NCBI GenBank assembly: GCA_017883135.1
Contig: JADGOE010000008.1
Location: 72-64,071 of the forward strand
Direction of reading: 5' to 3'
Source of the DNA: Acidimicrobiales bacterium
Lineage (GTDB): Bacteria > Actinomycetota > Acidimicrobiia > Acidimicrobiales > RAAP-2
Length of the DNA: 64,000 bases
Shown here: piece after piece, positions 35,804 through 44,087 of the stretch
How the letters are laid out: each line of letters opens with the position of its first letter
Position numbering within the stretch: position 1 is the first letter of the stretch
The notes under the pieces: model-generated
Told to the model about the DNA's origin: nothing
What the model saw: only the letters and a program-made list of their open reading frames with translations
The model's database searches: none
Translations under genes and position numbers: made by a program

Positions 35804-37354
35804 GTGACCAACGCCCCACCGACCGGACCCGGTACCCCTGCGACGCCCGGCGGCATCGACGGATTGGCGACCGTGCCCCACTGGATCGGGGGCGGCGCCT
35901 ACGGGGGCGCGCCCGAGCGCACCGGCGAGGTCTACGACCCGGCGACCGGCCGGGTCACCAAGCGGGTGGCCTTCGCCTCGCCCGCCGACGTCGACGCGGC
36001 CGTGCACAGTGCAGCCGAGGCCTTCGCCACCTGGCGCAACGCCTCGCTGACCCGGCGTTCCAAGGTCCTGTTCGCCTTCCGCGAGCTCTTGAACGCGCGG
36101 ACGGCCGACCTGGCCGCCATCGTCACCGCCGAGCACGGCAAGGTGCTCTCCGACGCCACCGGCGAGGTCGCCAGGGCGCTCGAGGTGGTCGAGTTCGCCT
36201 GCGGCATCCCCCATCTCCAGAAGGGCGGCTACTCCGAGTCGGTCTCCACCAAGGTCGACTCGTACTCGATCCGCCAGCCGCTGGGCGTGGTAGCCGTCAT
36301 CAGCCCCTTCAACTTTCCGACCATGGTGCCCTGTTGGTTCTTCCCCATCGCCATCGCCGCCGGCAATGCGGTGATCCTCAAGCCGAGCGAGAAGGACCCG
36401 TCGGCGGCCAATTGGATGGCTGAGGTGTGGGCCGAAGCCGGCCTGCCCGCGGGGGTCTTCAACGTGGTGCACGGGGACAAGGTCGCCGTCGACGCCCTGC
36501 TCGAGCACCCTCAGGTCAAGGCCGTGTCCTTCGTCGGCTCCACCCCGATCGCCCGTTACGTCTACGAGCGAGGCACTGCCCACGGCAAGCGGGTCCAGGC
36601 CCTCGGGGGTGCGAAGAACCACATGGTGGTGCTGCCCGATGCCGACCTGGGTCTCGCGGCCGACGCAGCGGTGAATGCCGGCTTCGGCTCGGCGGGCGAG
36701 CGTTGTATGGCCATCTCGGTCCTGGTCGCTGTGGGACCGGTGGCCGACCCCCTGATCGAGGGAATCGTCGAGCGTATGGATGGGCTGACAGTCGGCGACG
36801 GCCGGAGGGCCTGCGACATGGGCCCGCTGGTCACTGCCGCTCACCGGGACAAGGTGGCCGCCTACCTCGACGCCGGGGTGGCGTCGGGGGCCGAGCTGGT
36901 GGTCGACGGCCGGGGCATCCGGGTCGACGGCGACCCCGGTGGCTTCTGGCTCGGTCCGACCCTCTTCGACAAGGTGACTCCCGAGATGTCGATCTACACC
37001 GACGAGATCTTCGGCCCGGTCCTCTCGGTGGTGCGTGTGCCCACCTACGACGACGCGCTCGAGCTGGTCAACGCCAACCCCTACGGCAACGGCACGGCCA
37101 TCTTCACCAACGACGGCGGTGCGGTCCGCCGCTATCAGAACGAGGTGGAGGTGGGGATGGTCGGGGTGAACGTCCCCATCCCGGTGCCGATGGCCTACTA
37201 CTCGTTCGGCGGCTGGAAGGCCTCGCTGTTCGGCGACTCCCACGCCCACGGGATGGAGGGCGTGCACTTCTACACGCGGGGCAAGGTGGTCACCAGCCGG
37301 TGGCTGGACCCTGACCACGGGGGGATCAACCTCGGCTTCCCCCAGAGCATCTGA
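35804..37354 (+). CDS. mmsA: CoA-acylating methylmalonate-semialdehyde dehydrogenase (aldehyde dehydrogenase family)
   Basis: In-frame GTG at 35804. Motifs: ISPFNFP, ILKPSEKDP, GERCMA (catalytic Cys block), plus the typical MmsA tail FGGWKASLFGD.HAHG..GV.FYT..K.VT.RW. Confidence 0.85.
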   Translation: MTNAPPTGPGTPATPGGIDGLATVPHWIGGGAYGGAPERTGEVYDPATGRVTKRVAFASPADVDAAVHSAAEAFATWRNASLTRRSKVLFAFRELLNARTADLAAIVTAEHGKVLSDATGEVARALEVVEFACGIPHLQKGGYSESVSTKVDSYSIRQPLGVVAVISPFNFPTMVPCWFFPIAIAAGNAVILKPSEKDPSAANWMAEVWAEAGLPAGVFNVVHGDKVAVDALLEHPQVKAVSFVGSTPIARYVYERGTAHGKRVQALGGAKNHMVVLPDADLGLAADAAVNAGFGSAGERCMAISVLVAVGPVADPLIEGIVERMDGLTVGDGRRACDMGPLVTAAHRDKVAAYLDAGVASGAELVVDGRGIRVDGDPGGFWLGPTLFDKVTPEMSIYTDEIFGPVLSVVRVPTYDDALELVNANPYGNGTAIFTNDGGAVRRYQNEVEVGMVGVNVPIPVPMAYYSFGGWKASLFGDSHAHGMEGVHFYTRGKVVTSRWLDPDHGGINLGFPQSI

Positions 37355-37439
37355 GCGCGCTGCAGCCCCTGCAGACCGGGTCCGCCGTCAGCCGGCCACC
37401 GCCGACGCGCCCTGGGCCCCGGTCTACTGTGGGACCCGC

Positions 37440-38729
37440 ATGAATACGCAGACGCCGGTGAACGACTCGGAGATGGAGATCCTCCACCTGTCCAGCGTGG
37501 TCAAGCGGCCTCTTGTCGATGCCGCCGGTGATCGCCTGGGCCGGGTGCAGGACCTCATCGTGCGGGCGGGGGAGTCCCCCCACCCCCCCCTGGTCGGCCT
37601 GGTCGTCAACATCGGTGGCCGCGACCTGTTCGTCCCGATCCGGAAGGTCGCCGCCTTTGAGCCCGGCCGGGTGCGCTTCGAGGGGCGCCGGGTGGACCTG
37701 CGCCGGTTCGAGCGCCGACCCGGGGAGCTGTTGCTGGCCCGCGATCTCCTGGCCCACCACTTGATCAACTTCGTCGGTGGCAGGTTGATCAGAGCCAACG
37801 AGATCGAGCTGGCCAAGGTGAACGGCACCTGGGAGGTGGTGGCCGTCGATCCCTCGGGCCGGCCGGTCCTGCGCCGTCTGGTCCCGGGCCGCTTCGGTCG
37901 GCGCACCAAGCCGGGCATGATCATCGACTGGGCCAGCATCGAGCCGTTCGTTGCCCACGTGCCCTCGTCGCGGCTGCGGATCCCCTACCGCAAGCTGGCG
38001 AAGCTTCACCCCGCACAGATCGCCGACCTGGTGGAGGCGGCGTCACACGACGAGGGCGAGGAGATCATCGAGGCGGTCGGGGCCGACCGCGAGTTGGAGG
38101 CGGACGTCTTCGAGGAGCTCGACACCGAGCACCAGCTCGAGTTCGTCCGCAGCCGGTCCGACGAGGAGGCCGCGCGCCTGCTCTCGTCGATGGCGCCTGA
38201 CGATGCTGCCGACCTGATCGCCGAGGTCGACCAGGATCGGCGCCTGCCGATCCTGAACCTGCTCCCCGAGCCGCAACAGCGCAAGGTCCGCTCGCTGCTC
38301 AGCTACAACCCCGAGACCGCCGGCGGGCTGATGAGCCCCGATTTCCTGTGCCTGCCGGCCACCCTGCCGGTTGCCGGTGCCCTGGAGGCCATTCGTTCGA
38401 GCACCGCACCCCCCGAGGCACTCAACGTCGTCTTCGCCGCCGACGCCGACGATCGGGTCATCGGAGCGGTCTCTGCGGTCCGGCTGATCCAGGCCGAACC
38501 GACGGTGTCGCTCGGATCGGTCACCGAGGCCGACCCGGCCCACGCCCATGCCGACTGGGATCTCGGGGCGATGGTCCGGATGATGTCCGACTTCAACCTG
38601 ACCGTTGCTCCGGTCATGGACGCCGAGCACGACGAGATCCTGGGTGTGGTCACGGTCGACGATGTGCTGGAGCTGCTCCTCCCGACCGGGTGGAGACGCG
38701 ACTTCGGTAGGACGGCGGTCGAGGACTGA
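37440..38729 (+). CDS. Soluble MgtE-N-domain / CBS-pair protein with N-terminal PRC-barrel-like region (no membrane pore)
   Basis: 429 aa. The acidic helical segment HPAQIADLVEAASHDEGEEIIEAVGADRELEADVFEELD...MAPDDAADLIAEVD is MgtE_N-like. It is followed by a CBS pair (GLMSPDFLCL... VIGAVSAVRLI ... ILGVVTVDDVLELL). There are no hydrophobic TM segments. Confidence 0.8.
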   Translation: MNTQTPVNDSEMEILHLSSVVKRPLVDAAGDRLGRVQDLIVRAGESPHPPLVGLVVNIGGRDLFVPIRKVAAFEPGRVRFEGRRVDLRRFERRPGELLLARDLLAHHLINFVGGRLIRANEIELAKVNGTWEVVAVDPSGRPVLRRLVPGRFGRRTKPGMIIDWASIEPFVAHVPSSRLRIPYRKLAKLHPAQIADLVEAASHDEGEEIIEAVGADRELEADVFEELDTEHQLEFVRSRSDEEAARLLSSMAPDDAADLIAEVDQDRRLPILNLLPEPQQRKVRSLLSYNPETAGGLMSPDFLCLPATLPVAGALEAIRSSTAPPEALNVVFAADADDRVIGAVSAVRLIQAEPTVSLGSVTEADPAHAHADWDLGAMVRMMSDFNLTVAPVMDAEHDEILGVVTVDDVLELLLPTGWRRDFGRTAVED

Positions 38730-39060
38730 ACGATGTTCCGAGAGCGAAAACCCGCCACCGCCACCGAGTAGTGGCCGACCAGCATCGGGCCGGTCCCTGG
38801 GCAAGCCGGCCGATCTTCCGCGTCCAGCGAGACGTGAAGCTCGATCCGGCCGGCTCCGCCACACCCCGGGCCTGACTCCCGAGTCGGGACGCAGATCCCG
38901 GTCCCACCGAGCAAGAGCGCTCGACGCTCGTATCCGACTACCCGAACCGATGATCCGCACACCGGCGACCGGCACCGAGGGGCAGCGATCGCCCTTGGCG
39001 TTCCGCCGTGTCGTTGCCAGTGTCCACACGCATTCGGCGCCGCGCAAGAGGAGGTGAACC

Positions 39061-40692
39061 ATGGCCGACGACAACCCGGGGACGGACCGCCCCGACGCAG
39101 TGCTCGACGAAGCGCACCATGGTGACATCCAGGGCGCCTTCGGGACGATCCGCCAGCACGACCTCGACACCCGCCGGTCGTGGACCGCGCGCCTGCTCAC
39201 CCTGTTGGCAATCATGGGCCCCGGGCTGATCGTCATGGTGGGCGACAACGACGCCGGCGGGGTCTCCACCTACAGCCAGGCCGGTCAGAATTTCGGCCTC
39301 TCCCTGCTGTGGACCCTCCCACTGCTCATCCCCGTCCTCGTGGTGAACCAAGAGATGGTGGTCCGCCTGGGAGCGGTGACCGGTGTCGGGCACGCCCGGC
39401 TCATCAACGAACGGTTCGGGAAGTTTTGGGGGGCGTTCTCGGTCGGCGATCTGTTCGTCTTGAACTTCCTCACCATCGCCACCGAGTTCATCGGCGTGAG
39501 CCTCGCCCTGAACTACTTCGGGATCAGCCAGTACATCTCCGTCCCGATTGCCGCTCTCGTCCTCATCGCGATGACGGCCACCGGCAGCTTCCGGCGCTGG
39601 GAGCGTTTCATGTTCGTCTTCATCATCGTCAACTTCCTGGTCGTCCCCCTTGCCTTCTTGAGCCATCCGACCGCGGGGTCGTTCTTCCGGGGCCTGGTGA
39701 TCCCCGGTGTGAAGGGTGGCTTCACCTCCACCTCGGTGCTCTTGATCATCGCCATCGTCGGTACGACCGTCGCCCCGTGGCAGCTCTTCTTCCAGCAGTC
39801 GAACATCGTGGACAAGCGGATCACCCCACGCTGGATGAACTACGAGCGGGCCGACACGGTGCTCGGCTCGCTGATCACCGTCTTCGCCGCCGCAGCGCTC
39901 CTTGCGGTGACGGCAGCGGCCTTCGCCGGGACGCCCCTGGCGGGACACTTCACCAACGCGGGTGGCGTGGCCGGCGGTCTCAAACAGTATGTGGGACATG
40001 CCGCCGGGGCCCTGTTCGCGATCATCTTGTTGAACGCATCGATCATCGGAGCCGCCTCGGTAACCCTGGCCACGTCGTATGCGTTCGGCGACGTCTTCGG
40101 TGCCCGGCATTCGTTGCACCGCAGCTGGCGCGATGCCAAGTTCTTCTACGGGGCCTTCAGCGCCATGGTGGTGCTGGCCGCGATCATCGTCATCATCCCG
40201 GGGGCCCCGTTGGGGCTCATCACCACCGGGGTCCAGGCGCTCGCCGGCGTGCTGTTGCCGAGCGCCACGGTCTTCTTGCTACTGCTCTGCAACGACAAGG
40301 AGGTGTTGGGCCCATGGGTCAACCGGCCCTGGCTCAACGTCCTTGCCAGCCTGATCGTCTCGGTGCTGCTGATGATGTCCTTGGTGCTGATGACGACCAC
40401 GCTCTTCCCGCAGATCAACGTCAGTGTGCTCTCGCTGGTGCTGGGCGCCGTCGTCGTCGTGGGGAACCTGATCGGTGGCTTCGTGATGTTCCGCAAGCGT
40501 GCTCGGCGTCCGGAGATCGTCGCCGTGCCGATGGAGAAGCGGGCCACCTGGCGGATGCCACCTCTCAACCTGTTGCAGCGTCCCCAGTGGTCGCGTGGCC
40601 GCCTGATCGCCATGTACCTGTTGCGGGTGTACCTGGTGGTCGCGGTCCTGATGCTGCTGGTGAAAGCCATCGAGCTCGGCCTGCACCACTAG
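39061..40692 (+). CDS. NRAMP-related transporter with Mg2+-type (NRMT-like) binding-site residues
   Basis: 543 aa with a strong SD (agaggagg) 7 nt upstream. NRAMP N-terminal block GPGLIVMVGDNDAGGVSTYSQAGQNFGLSLLW has DAGG in place of DPGN. The TM6 block IVGTTVAPWQLFF has T-x-x-A-P-W in place of A-x-x-M-P-H. Confidence 0.85.
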   Translation: MADDNPGTDRPDAVLDEAHHGDIQGAFGTIRQHDLDTRRSWTARLLTLLAIMGPGLIVMVGDNDAGGVSTYSQAGQNFGLSLLWTLPLLIPVLVVNQEMVVRLGAVTGVGHARLINERFGKFWGAFSVGDLFVLNFLTIATEFIGVSLALNYFGISQYISVPIAALVLIAMTATGSFRRWERFMFVFIIVNFLVVPLAFLSHPTAGSFFRGLVIPGVKGGFTSTSVLLIIAIVGTTVAPWQLFFQQSNIVDKRITPRWMNYERADTVLGSLITVFAAAALLAVTAAAFAGTPLAGHFTNAGGVAGGLKQYVGHAAGALFAIILLNASIIGAASVTLATSYAFGDVFGARHSLHRSWRDAKFFYGAFSAMVVLAAIIVIIPGAPLGLITTGVQALAGVLLPSATVFLLLLCNDKEVLGPWVNRPWLNVLASLIVSVLLMMSLVLMTTTLFPQINVSVLSLVLGAVVVVGNLIGGFVMFRKRARRPEIVAVPMEKRATWRMPPLNLLQRPQWSRGRLIAMYLLRVYLVVAVLMLLVKAIELGLHH

Positions 40693-40813
40693 GTGAGCCG
40701 CCGCCCGAGGCCAACGGAGCACTCCCCACCAGGCAGGATGGGCCGGGGTTTGCGCCGATGGGCCCGGCCGGGGGAGTATCTGACTTCTATGTGCCTGCTG
40801 ATCTCGGTTCTCC

Positions 40814-42205
40814 ATGCCTAGTTTCGGGCTCAAGCGGCACAAGGTCAAGGGTCCGGCGAACCCGCCCCCGGTCCCTGAGCGCATCGCCCCCCGGCCACCG
40901 GCCCCAGGGGGCCTTCGCATCGCCTTCCTCGTCTACCGGGGCAATCCACGCTGCGGTGGCCAGGGGGTCTACACCCGCCACCTCACCCGCGAGCTGGTGG
41001 CCCTGGGCCACTCGGTGGAGGTCTTCGCCGGCCAACCCTGGCCCGAAGTGGACGAGGGTGTCGGGTTCACCCCGGTGCCCAGCCTCGATCTCTACCGCGA
41101 CCCCGATCCGTTCCGGGTTCCCCACCTGCGCGAGTTCGTGAACTCCTGGACCACGCCGATCGCCGCCCTCGAGTTCGGGGTGATGTGCACCGCAGGCTTC
41201 CCCGAGCCGTGGACCTTCAGCCTTCGGGCCCGCCGGCTGCTGGCCGCCCGGATGGGCGATTTCGACCTGATCCATGACAACCAGTGCCTGGGCAACGGGA
41301 TCCTGGGCATGATCGAGGACGGGTGGCCGCTGCTCACCACCCTGCACCACCCGATCACCGTCGACCGCCAGCTGGCCCTCAGCCATGCCGCCAACCCCTG
41401 GCAGCAGTTCACCCAGCGCCGCTGGTTCGGCTTCTTGCGCATGCAGGTCAAGGTGGCCCGGGCCCTGACCCGGGTGGTGACCGTCTCGGAGTCGTCCAAG
41501 GCCGACATCGCCGACCAGATGCACGTGGAATCGTCGCGGATGACCGTGGTGCCGGTGGGTGTGGACCCCACCGTGTTCCGGCCCCGCGACGAGGTCTCCC
41601 CGGTGCCCGGACGGATCATGGTGACCTCCTCGTCCGATGTGCCCATGAAGGGCCTGGTGCCCCTGCTCGAGGCGGTGGCCAAACTGCGCACCGAGCGGGA
41701 GATCGAGCTGGTGGTGATCGGCAACCCCCGCCCGGACGGGCGGGTGGCCAAGGCCATCGAGCGACTGGACCTGGCTCCCATCGTCCATTGCGTGTCGGGC
41801 ATCAGCGACGACGAGTTGGCTTGCAACTACGCCCAGGCCCAGGTGGCGGTGGTGCCGTCGCTGTACGAAGGGTTCTCGCTGCCGGCCATCGAGGCCATGG
41901 CATGTGGGGTGGCACTGGTGGCAACCACCGGGGGGGCGCTGCCCGAGGTCGTGGGCACCGACGGGGTCACGGGCCTGTTGGTCCCCCCTGACGACCCGGG
42001 TGCGTTGGCCGTGGCCATCGGCCGACTCCTCGACGACGACGAGCTGCGCGGCCGCCTGGGTGCAGCGGGTCGCGAGCGGGTGCTCGGACGGTTCACCTGG
42101 CAGGTGACCGCGGCAGGCACCGCCGAGCAGTACCGCGCACTGATGGCCGATCAGGACCAGGGCAACCTGACCGCCGGCCACGAAACGGCGGCCACGCCGT
42201 GTTGA
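40814..42205 (+). CDS. Glycosyltransferase family 4 (GT-B, 'group 1')
   Basis: 463 aa. The N-terminus is IAFLVYRGNPRCGGQGVYTRHLTRELVALGHSVEVF. The C-terminal EGFSLPAIEAMACGVALVATTGGALPEVV carries the E-x7-E type motif. Confidence 0.85.
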   Translation: MPSFGLKRHKVKGPANPPPVPERIAPRPPAPGGLRIAFLVYRGNPRCGGQGVYTRHLTRELVALGHSVEVFAGQPWPEVDEGVGFTPVPSLDLYRDPDPFRVPHLREFVNSWTTPIAALEFGVMCTAGFPEPWTFSLRARRLLAARMGDFDLIHDNQCLGNGILGMIEDGWPLLTTLHHPITVDRQLALSHAANPWQQFTQRRWFGFLRMQVKVARALTRVVTVSESSKADIADQMHVESSRMTVVPVGVDPTVFRPRDEVSPVPGRIMVTSSSDVPMKGLVPLLEAVAKLRTEREIELVVIGNPRPDGRVAKAIERLDLAPIVHCVSGISDDELACNYAQAQVAVVPSLYEGFSLPAIEAMACGVALVATTGGALPEVVGTDGVTGLLVPPDDPGALAVAIGRLLDDDELRGRLGAAGRERVLGRFTWQVTAAGTAEQYRALMADQDQGNLTAGHETAATPC

Positions 42206-42987
42206 CCGTCGACTACGCCAAGCTCGGCGTCCGACCCGGTGACCGCCTCCTCGATCTGGGGTGCGGCTTCGGTCGTCATGCCTACCAGGCCGCCCGGTTG
42301 GGTGCGGAGGTGGTGGCCTTCGACGCCGGAGCCGAAGAGGTCCGCAAGGTCAAGGACACCTTCGGGGCCATGGCGGTGGCCGGCGAGCTCGATGCCGAGG
42401 CTGCCCGGGTGGGGGAGGTCCGGGGCGATGCTCTCGAACTTCCCTTCGCCGACGGCGCTTTCGATCGCGTGATCGCCTCCGAGGTCCTCGAGCACATCCC
42501 CGAGGACGAGACGGCAATGGGCGAGCTGGCCCGAGTGCTGAGGCCGGGTGGTTCGATGGCGGTGACCGTCCCCCGATGCGGTCCGGAGTTCGTCAACTGG
42601 GCGCTGTCCGACGAATACCACAACGTGCCCGGCGGCCACGTGCGCATCTACCGCCAGAGCGAATTGGTCAACCGGCTGCAGGGGACCGGGCTGCGGGCGG
42701 TCGGCAGCCACCACGCCCACGGACTGCACGCCCCTTACTGGTGGCTCCGGTGCCTGGTGGGGCCGAAGAACGACAGCCACCCCGCCGTTGCCGCCTACCA
42801 CCGTCTGCTGGTGTGGGACATCGAGAAGGCACCCAAATTGACCCGCTACGCCGATCGCGTGCTCAACCCGTTGGTCGGCAAGAGCTTGGTGGTCTACCTG
42901 GTCAAACCCGCAGATGCGGCAGCGGGATCACCGGGGGGGCCTGAAACATCAGAGGAGTCTGGCGCACCACAGGAGGCGGTGGCATGA
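42199..42987 (+). CDS. Class I SAM-dependent methyltransferase
   Basis: 262 aa. Motif I is LLDLGCGFGRHAY and post-I is VVAFDAG. The start overlaps the GT4 stop by 7 nt. Confidence 0.85.
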   Translation: MLTVDYAKLGVRPGDRLLDLGCGFGRHAYQAARLGAEVVAFDAGAEEVRKVKDTFGAMAVAGELDAEAARVGEVRGDALELPFADGAFDRVIASEVLEHIPEDETAMGELARVLRPGGSMAVTVPRCGPEFVNWALSDEYHNVPGGHVRIYRQSELVNRLQGTGLRAVGSHHAHGLHAPYWWLRCLVGPKNDSHPAVAAYHRLLVWDIEKAPKLTRYADRVLNPLVGKSLVVYLVKPADAAAGSPGGPETSEESGAPQEAVA

Positions 42988-44087
42988 GGTCGATCCCCGA
43001 GGTACCCGGCGTGATGACGGCCGACCAGGTGATGGCCACCGCCCGGTCCATCGTGGGGTTGCAGCGACCCGACGGGATGATCCCGTGGTTTCCCGGCGGC
43101 CACTGTGACCCGTGGAACCACGTCGAAGCGGCCATGGCGCTGACCGCAGTGGGTCTGGACGGCGAGGCCGACCTGGCCTATCAGTGGCTCGTCGATACCC
43201 AGCTGCCCGATGGCAGTTGGTTCAACTACTACCTGGCCACCGGCATCAAGGACTCCCGCCTCGACACCAACGTCTGTGCCTACCTGGCCACTGGTGCGTG
43301 GCACCGCTTCATCTCGACCGGCGAGATCGACGGCCTCGAGCAGCTGTGGCCGACCGTCGAGGCCGGCATCGACTTCGTGCTGCGGTGGCAGCGGCTGGAC
43401 GGCTCCATCCGCTGGTCGCTCGACCCGTCGGGCTTCCTCGAGGAGTACGCCCTGCTGACCGGGTCGTCCTCGATCTACCACAGCCTCCGGTGCGCCATCG
43501 CCTGCGCCGAGCGCCTCGGTCACGACAAGCCGGACTGGGAGCTGGCCGCCGGCCGGTTGGCCCACGCCGTGGCCCACGACCCCGATGCCTTCGCTCCCAA
43601 GGTGGAGTTCGCCATGGACTGGTACTACCCGGTGCTGTCCGGTGCGCTCACCGGCGCCGCGGCACGTGGGCGGATCGAGGGCTCGTGGTCGACCTTCGTG
43701 ATGGAGGGCCGCGGCGTACGCTGCGTGTCCACCGGCGAGTGGGTGACTGCAGCAGAGACCGCCGAGTGCGTGCTTGCCCTCGACGCACTGGGCATGGACG
43801 ACGCGGCCATCGAGTTGCTCTCGTGGGTGCAGGCCCTGCGCAACGCGGACGGCTCCTACTGGACGGGCATGGTCTTCCCCGAAGAGGCGACCTACCCTCC
43901 GCTGGAGCGCTCGTCCTACACGGCCGGCGCCATGGTGCTGGCCGCCGATGCCCTGAGCCGGACCACGCGAGCATCGGGCCTCTTCCGCGGCGAGGGGCTG
44001 CCCAGCCACCTCGACCTCACCGAGCCGGCACCGGAGACTCCGGTGGAGCCGGCGGTGCGCGCACCTGGCTCACCCGGCGCCGCCTGA
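42984..44087 (+). CDS. Prenyltransferase/squalene-oxidase-repeat (alpha/alpha-toroid) protein
   Basis: 367 aa with an ATGA overlap on the methyltransferase gene. Repeated Q/R-x-x-DGS-W units (LQRPDGMIPW, TQLPDGSWFNY, WQRLDGSIRW, LRNADGSYW) are typical of terpenoid-cyclase/prenyltransferase beta-subunit repeats. Confidence 0.7.
   Translation: MRSIPEVPGVMTADQVMATARSIVGLQRPDGMIPWFPGGHCDPWNHVEAAMALTAVGLDGEADLAYQWLVDTQLPDGSWFNYYLATGIKDSRLDTNVCAYLATGAWHRFISTGEIDGLEQLWPTVEAGIDFVLRWQRLDGSIRWSLDPSGFLEEYALLTGSSSIYHSLRCAIACAERLGHDKPDWELAAGRLAHAVAHDPDAFAPKVEFAMDWYYPVLSGALTGAAARGRIEGSWSTFVMEGRGVRCVSTGEWVTAAETAECVLALDALGMDDAAIELLSWVQALRNADGSYWTGMVFPEEATYPPLERSSYTAGAMVLAADALSRTTRASGLFRGEGLPSHLDLTEPAPETPVEPAVRAPGSPGAA

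Follow-up and report, generated by a model that had tools for sequence, protein, structure and literature searches.

A soluble MgtE-like protein with a PRC barrel is paired with a long-form NRAMP-related transporter in an Acidimicrobiales-like actinobacterium

The DNA analyzed here, a stretch of 64,000 nucleotides (nt) of contig JADGOE010000008.1 from an Acidimicrobiales bacterium (GCA_017883135.1; hereafter the window, G+C ∼69%), contains two same-strand open reading frames (ORFs) of 429 and 543 amino acids (aa), which are separated by 331 nt. The longer ORF encodes a member of the NRAMP-related Mg2+ transporters (NRMTs; gene nrmT) with two additional C-terminal helices—the long form—and the shorter one, termed the partner, features the cytosolic sensor domains of the Mg2+ channel MgtE behind a PRC barrel. 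The locus belongs to the known type of nrmT operon, and the identity of its parts is assigned with high confidence. The pairing of an NRMT gene with an MgtE-like gene, together with the idea of regulation in trans, is already known since 2014; the new details are modest and comprise the PRC module of the partner, which is found across clades, and a third component, which the long form carries as part of its transporter.

37440..38729, + strand: soluble partner gene, 429 aa; PRC barrel, second β-domain, MgtE N domain, and CBS pair
39061..40692, + strand: long-form NRMT gene, 543 aa; 11-helix SLC11 core and two extra C-terminal helices

As judged by its sequence, the 543-aa protein belongs to the NRMT clade of SLC11, with its substitutions at the true metal-site positions. 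The Pfam model Nramp (PF01566) covers aa 69–422 with an E value of 1.3e-76. In a search against all PDB sequences, the closest one is EleNRMT (7QIA, E 1.4e-66), with canonical NRAMPs reaching 1.9e-20 at best and NRAT, the plant Al transporter, 2.3e-13. The NCBIfam model MntH scores 104 bits, with a cutoff of 430, and the NCBI MntH and Nramp models are scored far under, or barely over, their cutoffs. NRMTs are defined by DxxG in helix 1 and TxxA/T in helix 6, which replace DxxN and AxxM (PMC8806188). The corresponding elements of the window protein, located on transmembrane helices (TMs) 1 and 6 and at a Gln residue, are the following:

39250..39261, + strand: TM1 metal-site motif D64-A-G-G67, equivalent to D55 and G58 of EleNRMT; D-P-G-N in canonical NRAMPs
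39763..39780, + strand: TM6 metal-site motif T235-T-V-A238-P-W240, equivalent to T224 and A227 of EleNRMT; A-x-x-M-P-H in canonical NRAMPs
40234..40236, + strand: Q392, equivalent to Q379 of EleNRMT; column invariant in the alignment

These residues were mapped in the alignment from the PDB search and in a separate MAFFT alignment. The segments GDNDAGGVSTY and VGTTVAPWQLFF line up column by column with NDAGGISTYS and GTTIAPWMMFF of EleNRMT and with DPGN and A..MPH of a canonical NRAMP, which bears out the proposal of a first-pass annotation—made from the sequence alone—that NRMT-type residues occupy the metal site. All five site residues tested (D64, G67, T235, A238, and Q392) are retained. 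W240 sits at the canonical His position, and comparison of APWQLFFQQSN with APWMMFFNQSN of EleNRMT shows that the histidine of helix 6b is lost. EleNRMT (7QIA/7QIC/7QJI/7QJJ; Ramanadane et al., eLife 2022, PMC8806188) belongs to the same clade, with ∼33% identity over the 11-helix core, and shares both the DxxG/TxxA/Q site and the loss of this His. Its mutation T224A abolishes Mg2+ transport, and Q379 is a binding-site position for which the mutant Q379A was assayed (PMC8806188). EleNRMT has 11 membrane-spanning segments, transports Mg2+ and Mn2+ uncoupled from protons (PMC8806188), and was studied alone, whereas the window protein features two extra helices and a fully soluble partner. By homology with EleNRMT, the window transporter is expected to take up Mg2+—and Mn2+—driven by the membrane potential and uncoupled from protons.

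The partner is composed of two β-rich domains, the two sensor domains of MgtE, and a short tail:

37473..37679, + strand: first PRC-barrel domain, aa 12–80; PF05239 over aa 12–68; β-strands 14–80 in the AlphaFold2 (AF2) model
37725..37946, + strand: second β-rich domain, aa 96–169; AF2 strands 96–137 and 167–169
38004..38312, + strand: MgtE N domain, aa 189–291; Pfam PF03448, E 1.1e-20; aligned to 2yvy and 8gpv
38325..38678, + strand: CBS pair, aa 296–413; Pfam CBS over aa 362–413, E 2.5e-10
38679..38726, + strand: basic tail LPTGWRRDFGRTAVED, which occupies the place of the MgtE plug helix and pore

The top matches of the partner among PDB sequences are the MgtE cytosolic domains 8GPV, 2YVY, and 2OUX (E ∼1e-21). 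The model TIGR00400 (mgtE) reaches 100.5 of the 232.75 bits required and is matched at positions 26–251 of 450 only. The AF2 model, based on 46 relatives and with a predicted local distance difference test score (pLDDT) of 83.7, features two β-rich domains, the helical N domain, and the CBS pair, and its top Foldseek matches are again MgtE cytosolic domains (E 8e-19). No hydrophobic or transmembrane segment occurs in the partner, the chain of which stops 16 residues after CBS2, and no DNA- or RNA-binding domain is detected in it by Pfam or NCBIfam. The neighbor upstream of the transporter gene is hence the pore-less MgtE_N/CBS protein with a PRC-like N-terminus that the first-pass annotation described, as confirmed by Pfam, PDB, and AF2/Foldseek. 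The same annotation called it the complete cytoplasmic regulatory part of MgtE; this is correct for the N domain together with the CBS pair and fails for the plug helix, which is absent along with its Mg2/Mg3 sites.

The PRC assignment of the first domain is barely over the gathering score in the window protein itself (PF05239, E 1.9e-4, 21.8 bits versus a cutoff of 21.2). Across the family, PRC is matched in 12 of 12 diverse members with a best E value of 5.2e-13, and the N-terminal profile matches the solved PRC-barrel proteins 8qzo/8onw at 2.8e-6. The second β-domain carries the family-wide motif LL..D.L...I.D..G..V.RVND..L in the alignment and reaches PRC at sub-threshold E values of 0.026–0.027 in two of eight members; it may be a degenerate PRC barrel. 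In all clades sampled, NRMT partners have the PRC-type N-terminal module. A restriction of PRC barrel and long form to this locus was considered and rejected: The partners of short-form NRMTs, including the Eggerthella lenta type, share the N-terminal module. Some database annotations list the PRC module of partners, and full-text searches found no paper that combines "PRC-barrel" and "MgtE." The profile of the first domain is shared with PRC-barrel adaptors—the H subunit of the photosynthetic reaction center, RimM, and archaeal 8QZO/8ONW. In the partner, unlike in these adaptors, the barrel is joined to the sensor domains of MgtE. In one partner homolog of 607 aa (P0241), the second β-domain is duplicated internally, as is a portion of the N domain, which may be an assembly artifact or a real tandem duplication.

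The C-termini of the partners vary. Eggerthella-type partners end in a TM helix, which the window partner does not have; many soluble partners—the one of the window among them—end in a basic tail of the type P-x-x-W-R-R; and the proteins of a clade with the partner gene downstream of nrmT stop right after CBS2. In alignments of close relatives, P415 and R419 of the tail are invariant, and W418 and R420 are nearly so. These C-terminal variants point to an action at the membrane.

The sensor residues were assigned by mapping Thermus thermophilus MgtE (2YVX/2ZY9/5X9H) onto the partner family, followed by a census of 62 long-form partners. Like MgtE, the partner combines the N domain with the CBS pair and carries acidic residues at the binding positions between them: D222, D254, D255, and D258 correspond to MgtE E59, D91, D92, and D95, and D408 and E411 to D247 and D250. 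D222, D254, and D258 are kept in all 62 partners and D255 in 55 of them, whereas the positions of D408 and E411 are acidic in 62 and 60, respectively. Mutating sites of the N-domain/CBS interface in MgtE abolishes Mg2+-dependent gating (PMC10200709). A function of the partner as an Mg2+ sensor is plausible from this conservation. The β-domains are additions to the N-terminus in comparison with MgtE, and the partner has a gene of its own, distinct from that of the membrane protein that is presumably its target.

The pairing of the two genes was counted in two sets of loci. When one genome of each species was scanned for NRMT motifs, 80 long-form loci were obtained, which belong to Acidimicrobiia, Solirubrobacterales and other Thermoleophilia, Chloroflexota, Dormibacterota, Streptosporangiaceae, Kitasatospora, and Alicyclobacillus; metagenomes, with the matches ordered by their similarity to EleNRMT, contributed another 80. 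Among the 72 genome loci with enough flank, 69 feature a partner near the NRMT gene on the same strand—adjacent or within ∼2.3 kb. In detail, the partner lies directly upstream in 64 and 0.7–2.3 kb upstream in five, and three have none in the fetched DNA. In the metagenome loci with enough flank, the partner adjoins the transporter gene in 40 of 44 cases (25 directly upstream, 15 directly downstream). The pair occurs in Actinomycetota, Chloroflexota, Dormibacterota, and gut Eggerthellaceae-type loci, as well as in loci bearing an M-box riboswitch, and gene calls made independently, with Pfam matches computed beforehand, show it in a Gaiellaceae genome as well. The gene pairing is far beyond chance, and the neighborhood count that the first-pass annotation had suggested thus reveals a strongly conserved arrangement.

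In the loci L081–L083, the transporters of which are 97% identical to EleNRMT, a 464-aa partner ends 5 nt before the transporter gene. The partners of this E. lenta type (L081, 3500–4894; L085, 3462–4814; L092, 3531–4880) have a length of 449–464 aa and the architecture PRC–MgtE_N–CBS with a C-terminal TM helix. In L024, L043, L054, and L075, 1.5–2.1 kb of other sequence lie between partner and transporter gene. Second, divergent PRC–MgtE_N–CBS paralogs are found in L072 (2608–3987, − strand) and L096 (3–1061, − strand) on the strand opposite the nrmT pair, so partner-like proteins do not always occur as one per transporter. A 684-aa ORF in L097 (1329–4044), which joins the end of a partner to an NRMT on a low-coverage gut contig, most likely reflects a frameshift or an assembly error rather than a natural fusion, as sister loci have two genes. 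All-against-all clustering of ORFs of at least 100 aa yields no third gene that is broadly conserved around the pair; a much smaller third component emerged from a dedicated hidden Markov model (HMM).

This component corresponds to the C-terminal extension of the long form, which consists of two helices and the loop between them:

40420..40506, + strand: TM12, an extra helix, aa 454–482, from AF2 secondary structure; weakly conserved among 89 long forms
40507..40593, + strand: basic loop TM12–TM13, aa 483–511, with the motif W-R-M-P-P-L-x-L-L-x-R-P-x-W-S
40594..40683, + strand: TM13 (LIAMYLLRVYLVVAVLMLLVKAIELGL), aa 512–541; conserved and homologous to a free small membrane protein

The loop residues W497, R498, M499, P500, L502, L504, L505, R507, P508, W510, and S511 are invariant in the alignment, and the loop is predicted to be cytoplasmic by the positive-inside rule. 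An HMM of the long-form extension matched ORFs of 55–74 aa directly 3′ of short-form nrmT genes. An HMM of these small ORFs in turn found 25 of them, with lengths of 36–74 aa and all with E values of at most 1.7e-8, and each sits between nrmT and a downstream partner or just past the partner:

Small ORFs between nrmT and partner in short-form nrmT operons: L120, 6240–6416; L125, 3468–3662; L126, 1519–1695; L127, 6235–6429
Small ORFs between nrmT and partner in further short-form nrmT operons: L133, 3446–3619; L143, 6217–6390; L148, 6234–6401
Small ORFs past the partner: L114, 7582–7692; L122, 7559–7699; L123, 7739–7864; L146, 7575–7694; L159, 7580–7693

The encoded single-pass proteins of 36–74 aa share the motif ...M[ST]+xV+xxLxxLRxYLxxLxxLLxYKFI. 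Aligned with the long-form extension by hhalign, the small family gives a probability of 94.6% and an E value of 6.8e-8 over aa 507–541 of the window protein. Among 10,320 ORFs of the loci, the small-protein HMM matches 79 NRMT ORFs within their last 45 residues and three at other positions, and it reaches non-NRMT ORFs only at E values of 0.037 or above. Pfam and NCBIfam hold no model for the nrmT-linked small membrane protein, and no description of it as a third nrmT component was found in the literature. The simplest reading of these alignments would be that the long form is a transporter fused to the small single-pass subunit of nrmT operons. TM12 is then probably a topological linker that returns the chain to the cytoplasm after TM11; such a linker would be needed because the 11-helix core should end outside the cell and the small protein should start inside. 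The long-form loci L034, L042, L067 (Alicyclobacillus mengziensis), and L069 keep the TM13 element and have no partner in the fetched DNA; their partner may be located elsewhere in the genome or be absent. A homology of the C-terminal TM helix of Eggerthella-type partners to the small protein and TM13 is unsupported (hhalign probability 0.7%); the helix is hence an analogous membrane anchor, and the sensor is not joined to the small protein in the sense of a Rosetta stone.

In enterobacteria, Mg2+ transporters are modulated by the small single-pass membrane proteins MgtS and MgtR. They are likewise very small, hydrophobic, and genetically tied to Mg2+ uptake, a comparison by description that claims no sequence similarity. 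Unlike MgtS and MgtR, the small protein linked to nrmT is, in the window, part of the transporter chain.

NrmT was discovered via M-box riboswitches by Shin et al. (PLoS Genet 2014, PMC4072509), who noted a gene for an "MgtE cytoplasmic-domain" protein beside most nrmT genes, proposed feedback regulation, and raised a chaperone role as an alternative (PMC4072509). The arrangement is hence not undescribed, as the first-pass annotation had assumed, and this includes the regulatory idea. In the operons of that study (Ca_c0685 of Clostridium acetobutylicum; Acp2976/Acp2977), an NRAMP-related, Mg-associated outgroup transporter is likewise encoded beside an MgtE cytoplasmic-domain gene, and the Acidobacterium capsulatum pair Acp2976/Acp2977 resembles the window in having the partner upstream and no M-box. 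The study makes no mention of the PRC N-terminus, the 13-helix long form, or the small membrane protein; the window differs in addition by being actinobacterial and by its 331-nt spacer. Full-text searches found no later paper on the MgtE-like partner, and the EleNRMT structural paper is silent on it.

38730..39060, unstranded: spacer between the two genes, 331 nt; sequence unconserved between genomes

The spacer carries no recognizable RNA element. Rfam gives no match at E values of up to 1 within 36500–41500—neither an M-box nor yybP-ykoY. The folding z-score of the spacer is −0.12, i.e., no better than shuffled sequence. It aligns over 38 nt only, and to the closest locus only, and is unconserved even where the proteins are 80–86% identical. 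With Rfam, folding, and conservation all null, a recognizable regulatory RNA or leader in or upstream of the spacer was rejected. No promoter-like or terminator-like site was found inside the spacer, and tblastx of it returns no conserved peptide beyond the weak matches expected in high-GC DNA; it may nevertheless hold a promoter. Gaps of ∼200–440 nt between partner and transporter gene are typical of Acidimicrobiia and Solirubrobacterales, and in some other lineages the two genes abut or overlap by 4 nt. M-box riboswitches scoring 117–138 bits occur upstream of nrmT in L122 (3793–3969), L133 (1559–1734), L140 (2663–2840), and L143 (4267–4442), which belong to the clade with the downstream partner and the free small protein; in L140 and L122, the M-box lies 0.9–1.9 kb before nrmT, and another gene may intervene. 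The four long-form loci sampled (L001, L003, L020, and L025) have no M-box. The M-boxes ahead of related operons tie the wider family to Mg2+.

Feedback gating of the NRMT by the partner in trans appears the most likely mechanism, at about even or slightly lower confidence. From the domains and the conserved pairing, we infer a physical contact between the two proteins, with Mg2+ as the ion both sensed and transported and with an inhibitory direction of regulation. The accessory protein would be seated on the cytoplasmic face of the transporter. Binding of Mg2+ by the conserved acids between N domain and CBS pair would then compact it, and the compacted protein would block uptake. In this way, a carrier that lacks a cytoplasmic domain would gain a safety valve like the built-in ones of MgtE and CorA. 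Candidates for the contact are the PRC-type domains and the basic tail of the partner as well as the TM12–TM13 loop of the transporter, the last of which is conserved and a candidate docking site. Gating is suggested because the N domain plus CBS pair is the module that closes MgtE at high cytoplasmic Mg2+, and because the C-terminal TM anchor of Eggerthella-type partners would place them close to the membrane.

Several observations weigh against gating, and the main grounds for caution are the published negative co-expression and the missing plug helix. In the work of Shin et al., the MgtE-like fragment was dispensable for Mg2+ complementation by the C. acetobutylicum NrmT proteins, co-expression of A. 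capsulatum Acp2976 in Bacillus subtilis did not change the rescue, and Acp2977 rescued an Mn2+-uptake mutant fully and an Mg2+ one only partly (PMC4072509). EleNRMT is active alone in proteoliposomes (PMC8806188). On the side of the partner, the plug helix and the five-helix pore domain of MgtE are missing, and with the plug helix go its ligands of the sites Mg2/Mg3; the position of MgtE D226 is taken by an Asn residue (N386). The ATP-binding residues of T. thermophilus MgtE—Y170, R187, D188, N203, and F227 (Tomita et al. 2017, PMC5529423)—are replaced in the window by V330, V347, R348, E363, and L387, and these positions are unconserved in the 62 long-form partners as well. A function as an ATP sensor, as implied by the Mg2+/ATP-sensing module of the first-pass annotation, is not supported by these sequences. 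At the level of DNA, neither an M-box nor another recognizable Mg2+-responsive element is found at the locus, and the unconserved 331-nt spacer leaves the co-transcription of the pair open. Moreover, the AF2 model of the transporter, the input relatives of which have at least 80% identity, has a pLDDT of 44, and only its helix boundaries were used; the locus scans relied on NDAGG and APW patterns, so the motif conservation across loci is partly by construction.

A wider version of the gating mechanism views the NRMT as a three-part machine: The carrier would be the LeuT fold of 11 helices, a PRC–MgtE_N–CBS protein would be its Mg2+ sensor, and a single-pass membrane subunit, free with 36–74 aa in some operons and present as TM12–TM13 in the window transporter, would be the adaptor for docking the sensor. 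In this view, the module that gates a channel (MgtE) would have been transferred in evolution to an unrelated carrier and would provide Mg2+ feedback in trans. This view is tentative and clearly less probable than gating as such.

Among the alternatives to feedback gating, the strongest regards the long-form transporter as an importer mainly of Mn2+, or of divalent cations broadly, and the partner as a sensor of Mn2+ or another signal. Acp2977 provides a precedent: Its gene lies behind an MgtE-like one and lacks an M-box, and its rescue of the two uptake mutants was in favor of Mn2+. EleNRMT also carries Mn2+, and M-boxes are missing from the window locus as from L001, L003, L020, and L025. 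However, all five EleNRMT site residues are identical in the window transporter, including the equivalent of T224, which is essential for Mg2+ transport; the Mg2+-binding acids of MgtE are conserved in the partner; and no Mn-responsive element such as yybP-ykoY was found by Rfam at the locus. We consider a primary role in Mn2+ import unlikely.

PRC barrels are protein–protein adaptor domains. The partner could serve as an assembly, stability, or metallochaperone factor, which binds the transporter or exchanges the ion with it, in either direction, where the ion leaves toward the cytoplasm, and does not act as an allosteric gate. Besides the adaptor fold, the membrane anchors on partners of some clades fit such a role, as does the lack of a gating effect in the sole co-expression test, and a chaperone is among the alternatives of Shin et al. 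On the other hand, it is just the sensor of MgtE that has been retained, interface acids included, and NRMTs fold and transport without a partner. This role is somewhat less probable still than Mn2+ import.

Least probable is a partner without any contact to the transporter—a cytoplasmic Mg2+- or nucleotide-responsive regulator of another target that is kept near nrmT only for co-expression. The adjacency in either gene order across distant phyla, the TM anchors on some partners, and the lack of a detected DNA- or RNA-binding domain speak against it; in its favor are the long unconserved spacer suggesting separate promoters here, the opposite-strand paralogs in L072 and L096, and the long-form NRMT genes of L034, L042, and L067 without a partner within 6 kb.

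The gene calls at the locus are well defined on the side of the transporter.

39048..39054, + strand: Shine–Dalgarno sequence GAGGAGG, 6 nt before the transporter ATG; read from the sequence

An in-frame TGA at 39055–39057 directly precedes the start codon of the transporter, which rules out an N-terminal extension into the spacer; together with the GAGGAGG at 39048–39054, it makes the start unambiguous. The true start of the partner may be the ATG at 37473 (Met12): Residues 1–10 are disordered in the AF2 model, and many homologs have 418–420 aa. Both genes are single copy in the window, and the nearest homologs of both proteins are found in metagenome-assembled genomes of Acidimicrobiales and Acidimicrobiaceae. 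The flanking genes—encoding a major facilitator superfamily transporter, an acyl-CoA dehydrogenase, an aldehyde dehydrogenase, a GT4 glycosyltransferase, and a methyltransferase—have no link to metal homeostasis. Located 3′ of the glycosyltransferase and methyltransferase genes, an ORF of 367 aa (42984–44087, + strand) has no Pfam match at E values of up to 1e-5, and a homolog of it is found in 14 fetched genome loci.

NRMTs represent the fourth class of bacterial Mg2+ importers, and uptake by such uncoupled transporters has to be restrained in some way. What their MgtE-like neighbor does has been a question since 2014, which the present analysis sharpens: The partner is near-universal across NRMT clades, including next to genes of the EleNRMT type, carries a PRC module, and retains, in this clade, the acids of the Mg2+ site without the ATP site, and a small membrane protein joins the pair. 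Concrete constructs for reconstitution and for structural studies follow from these features.

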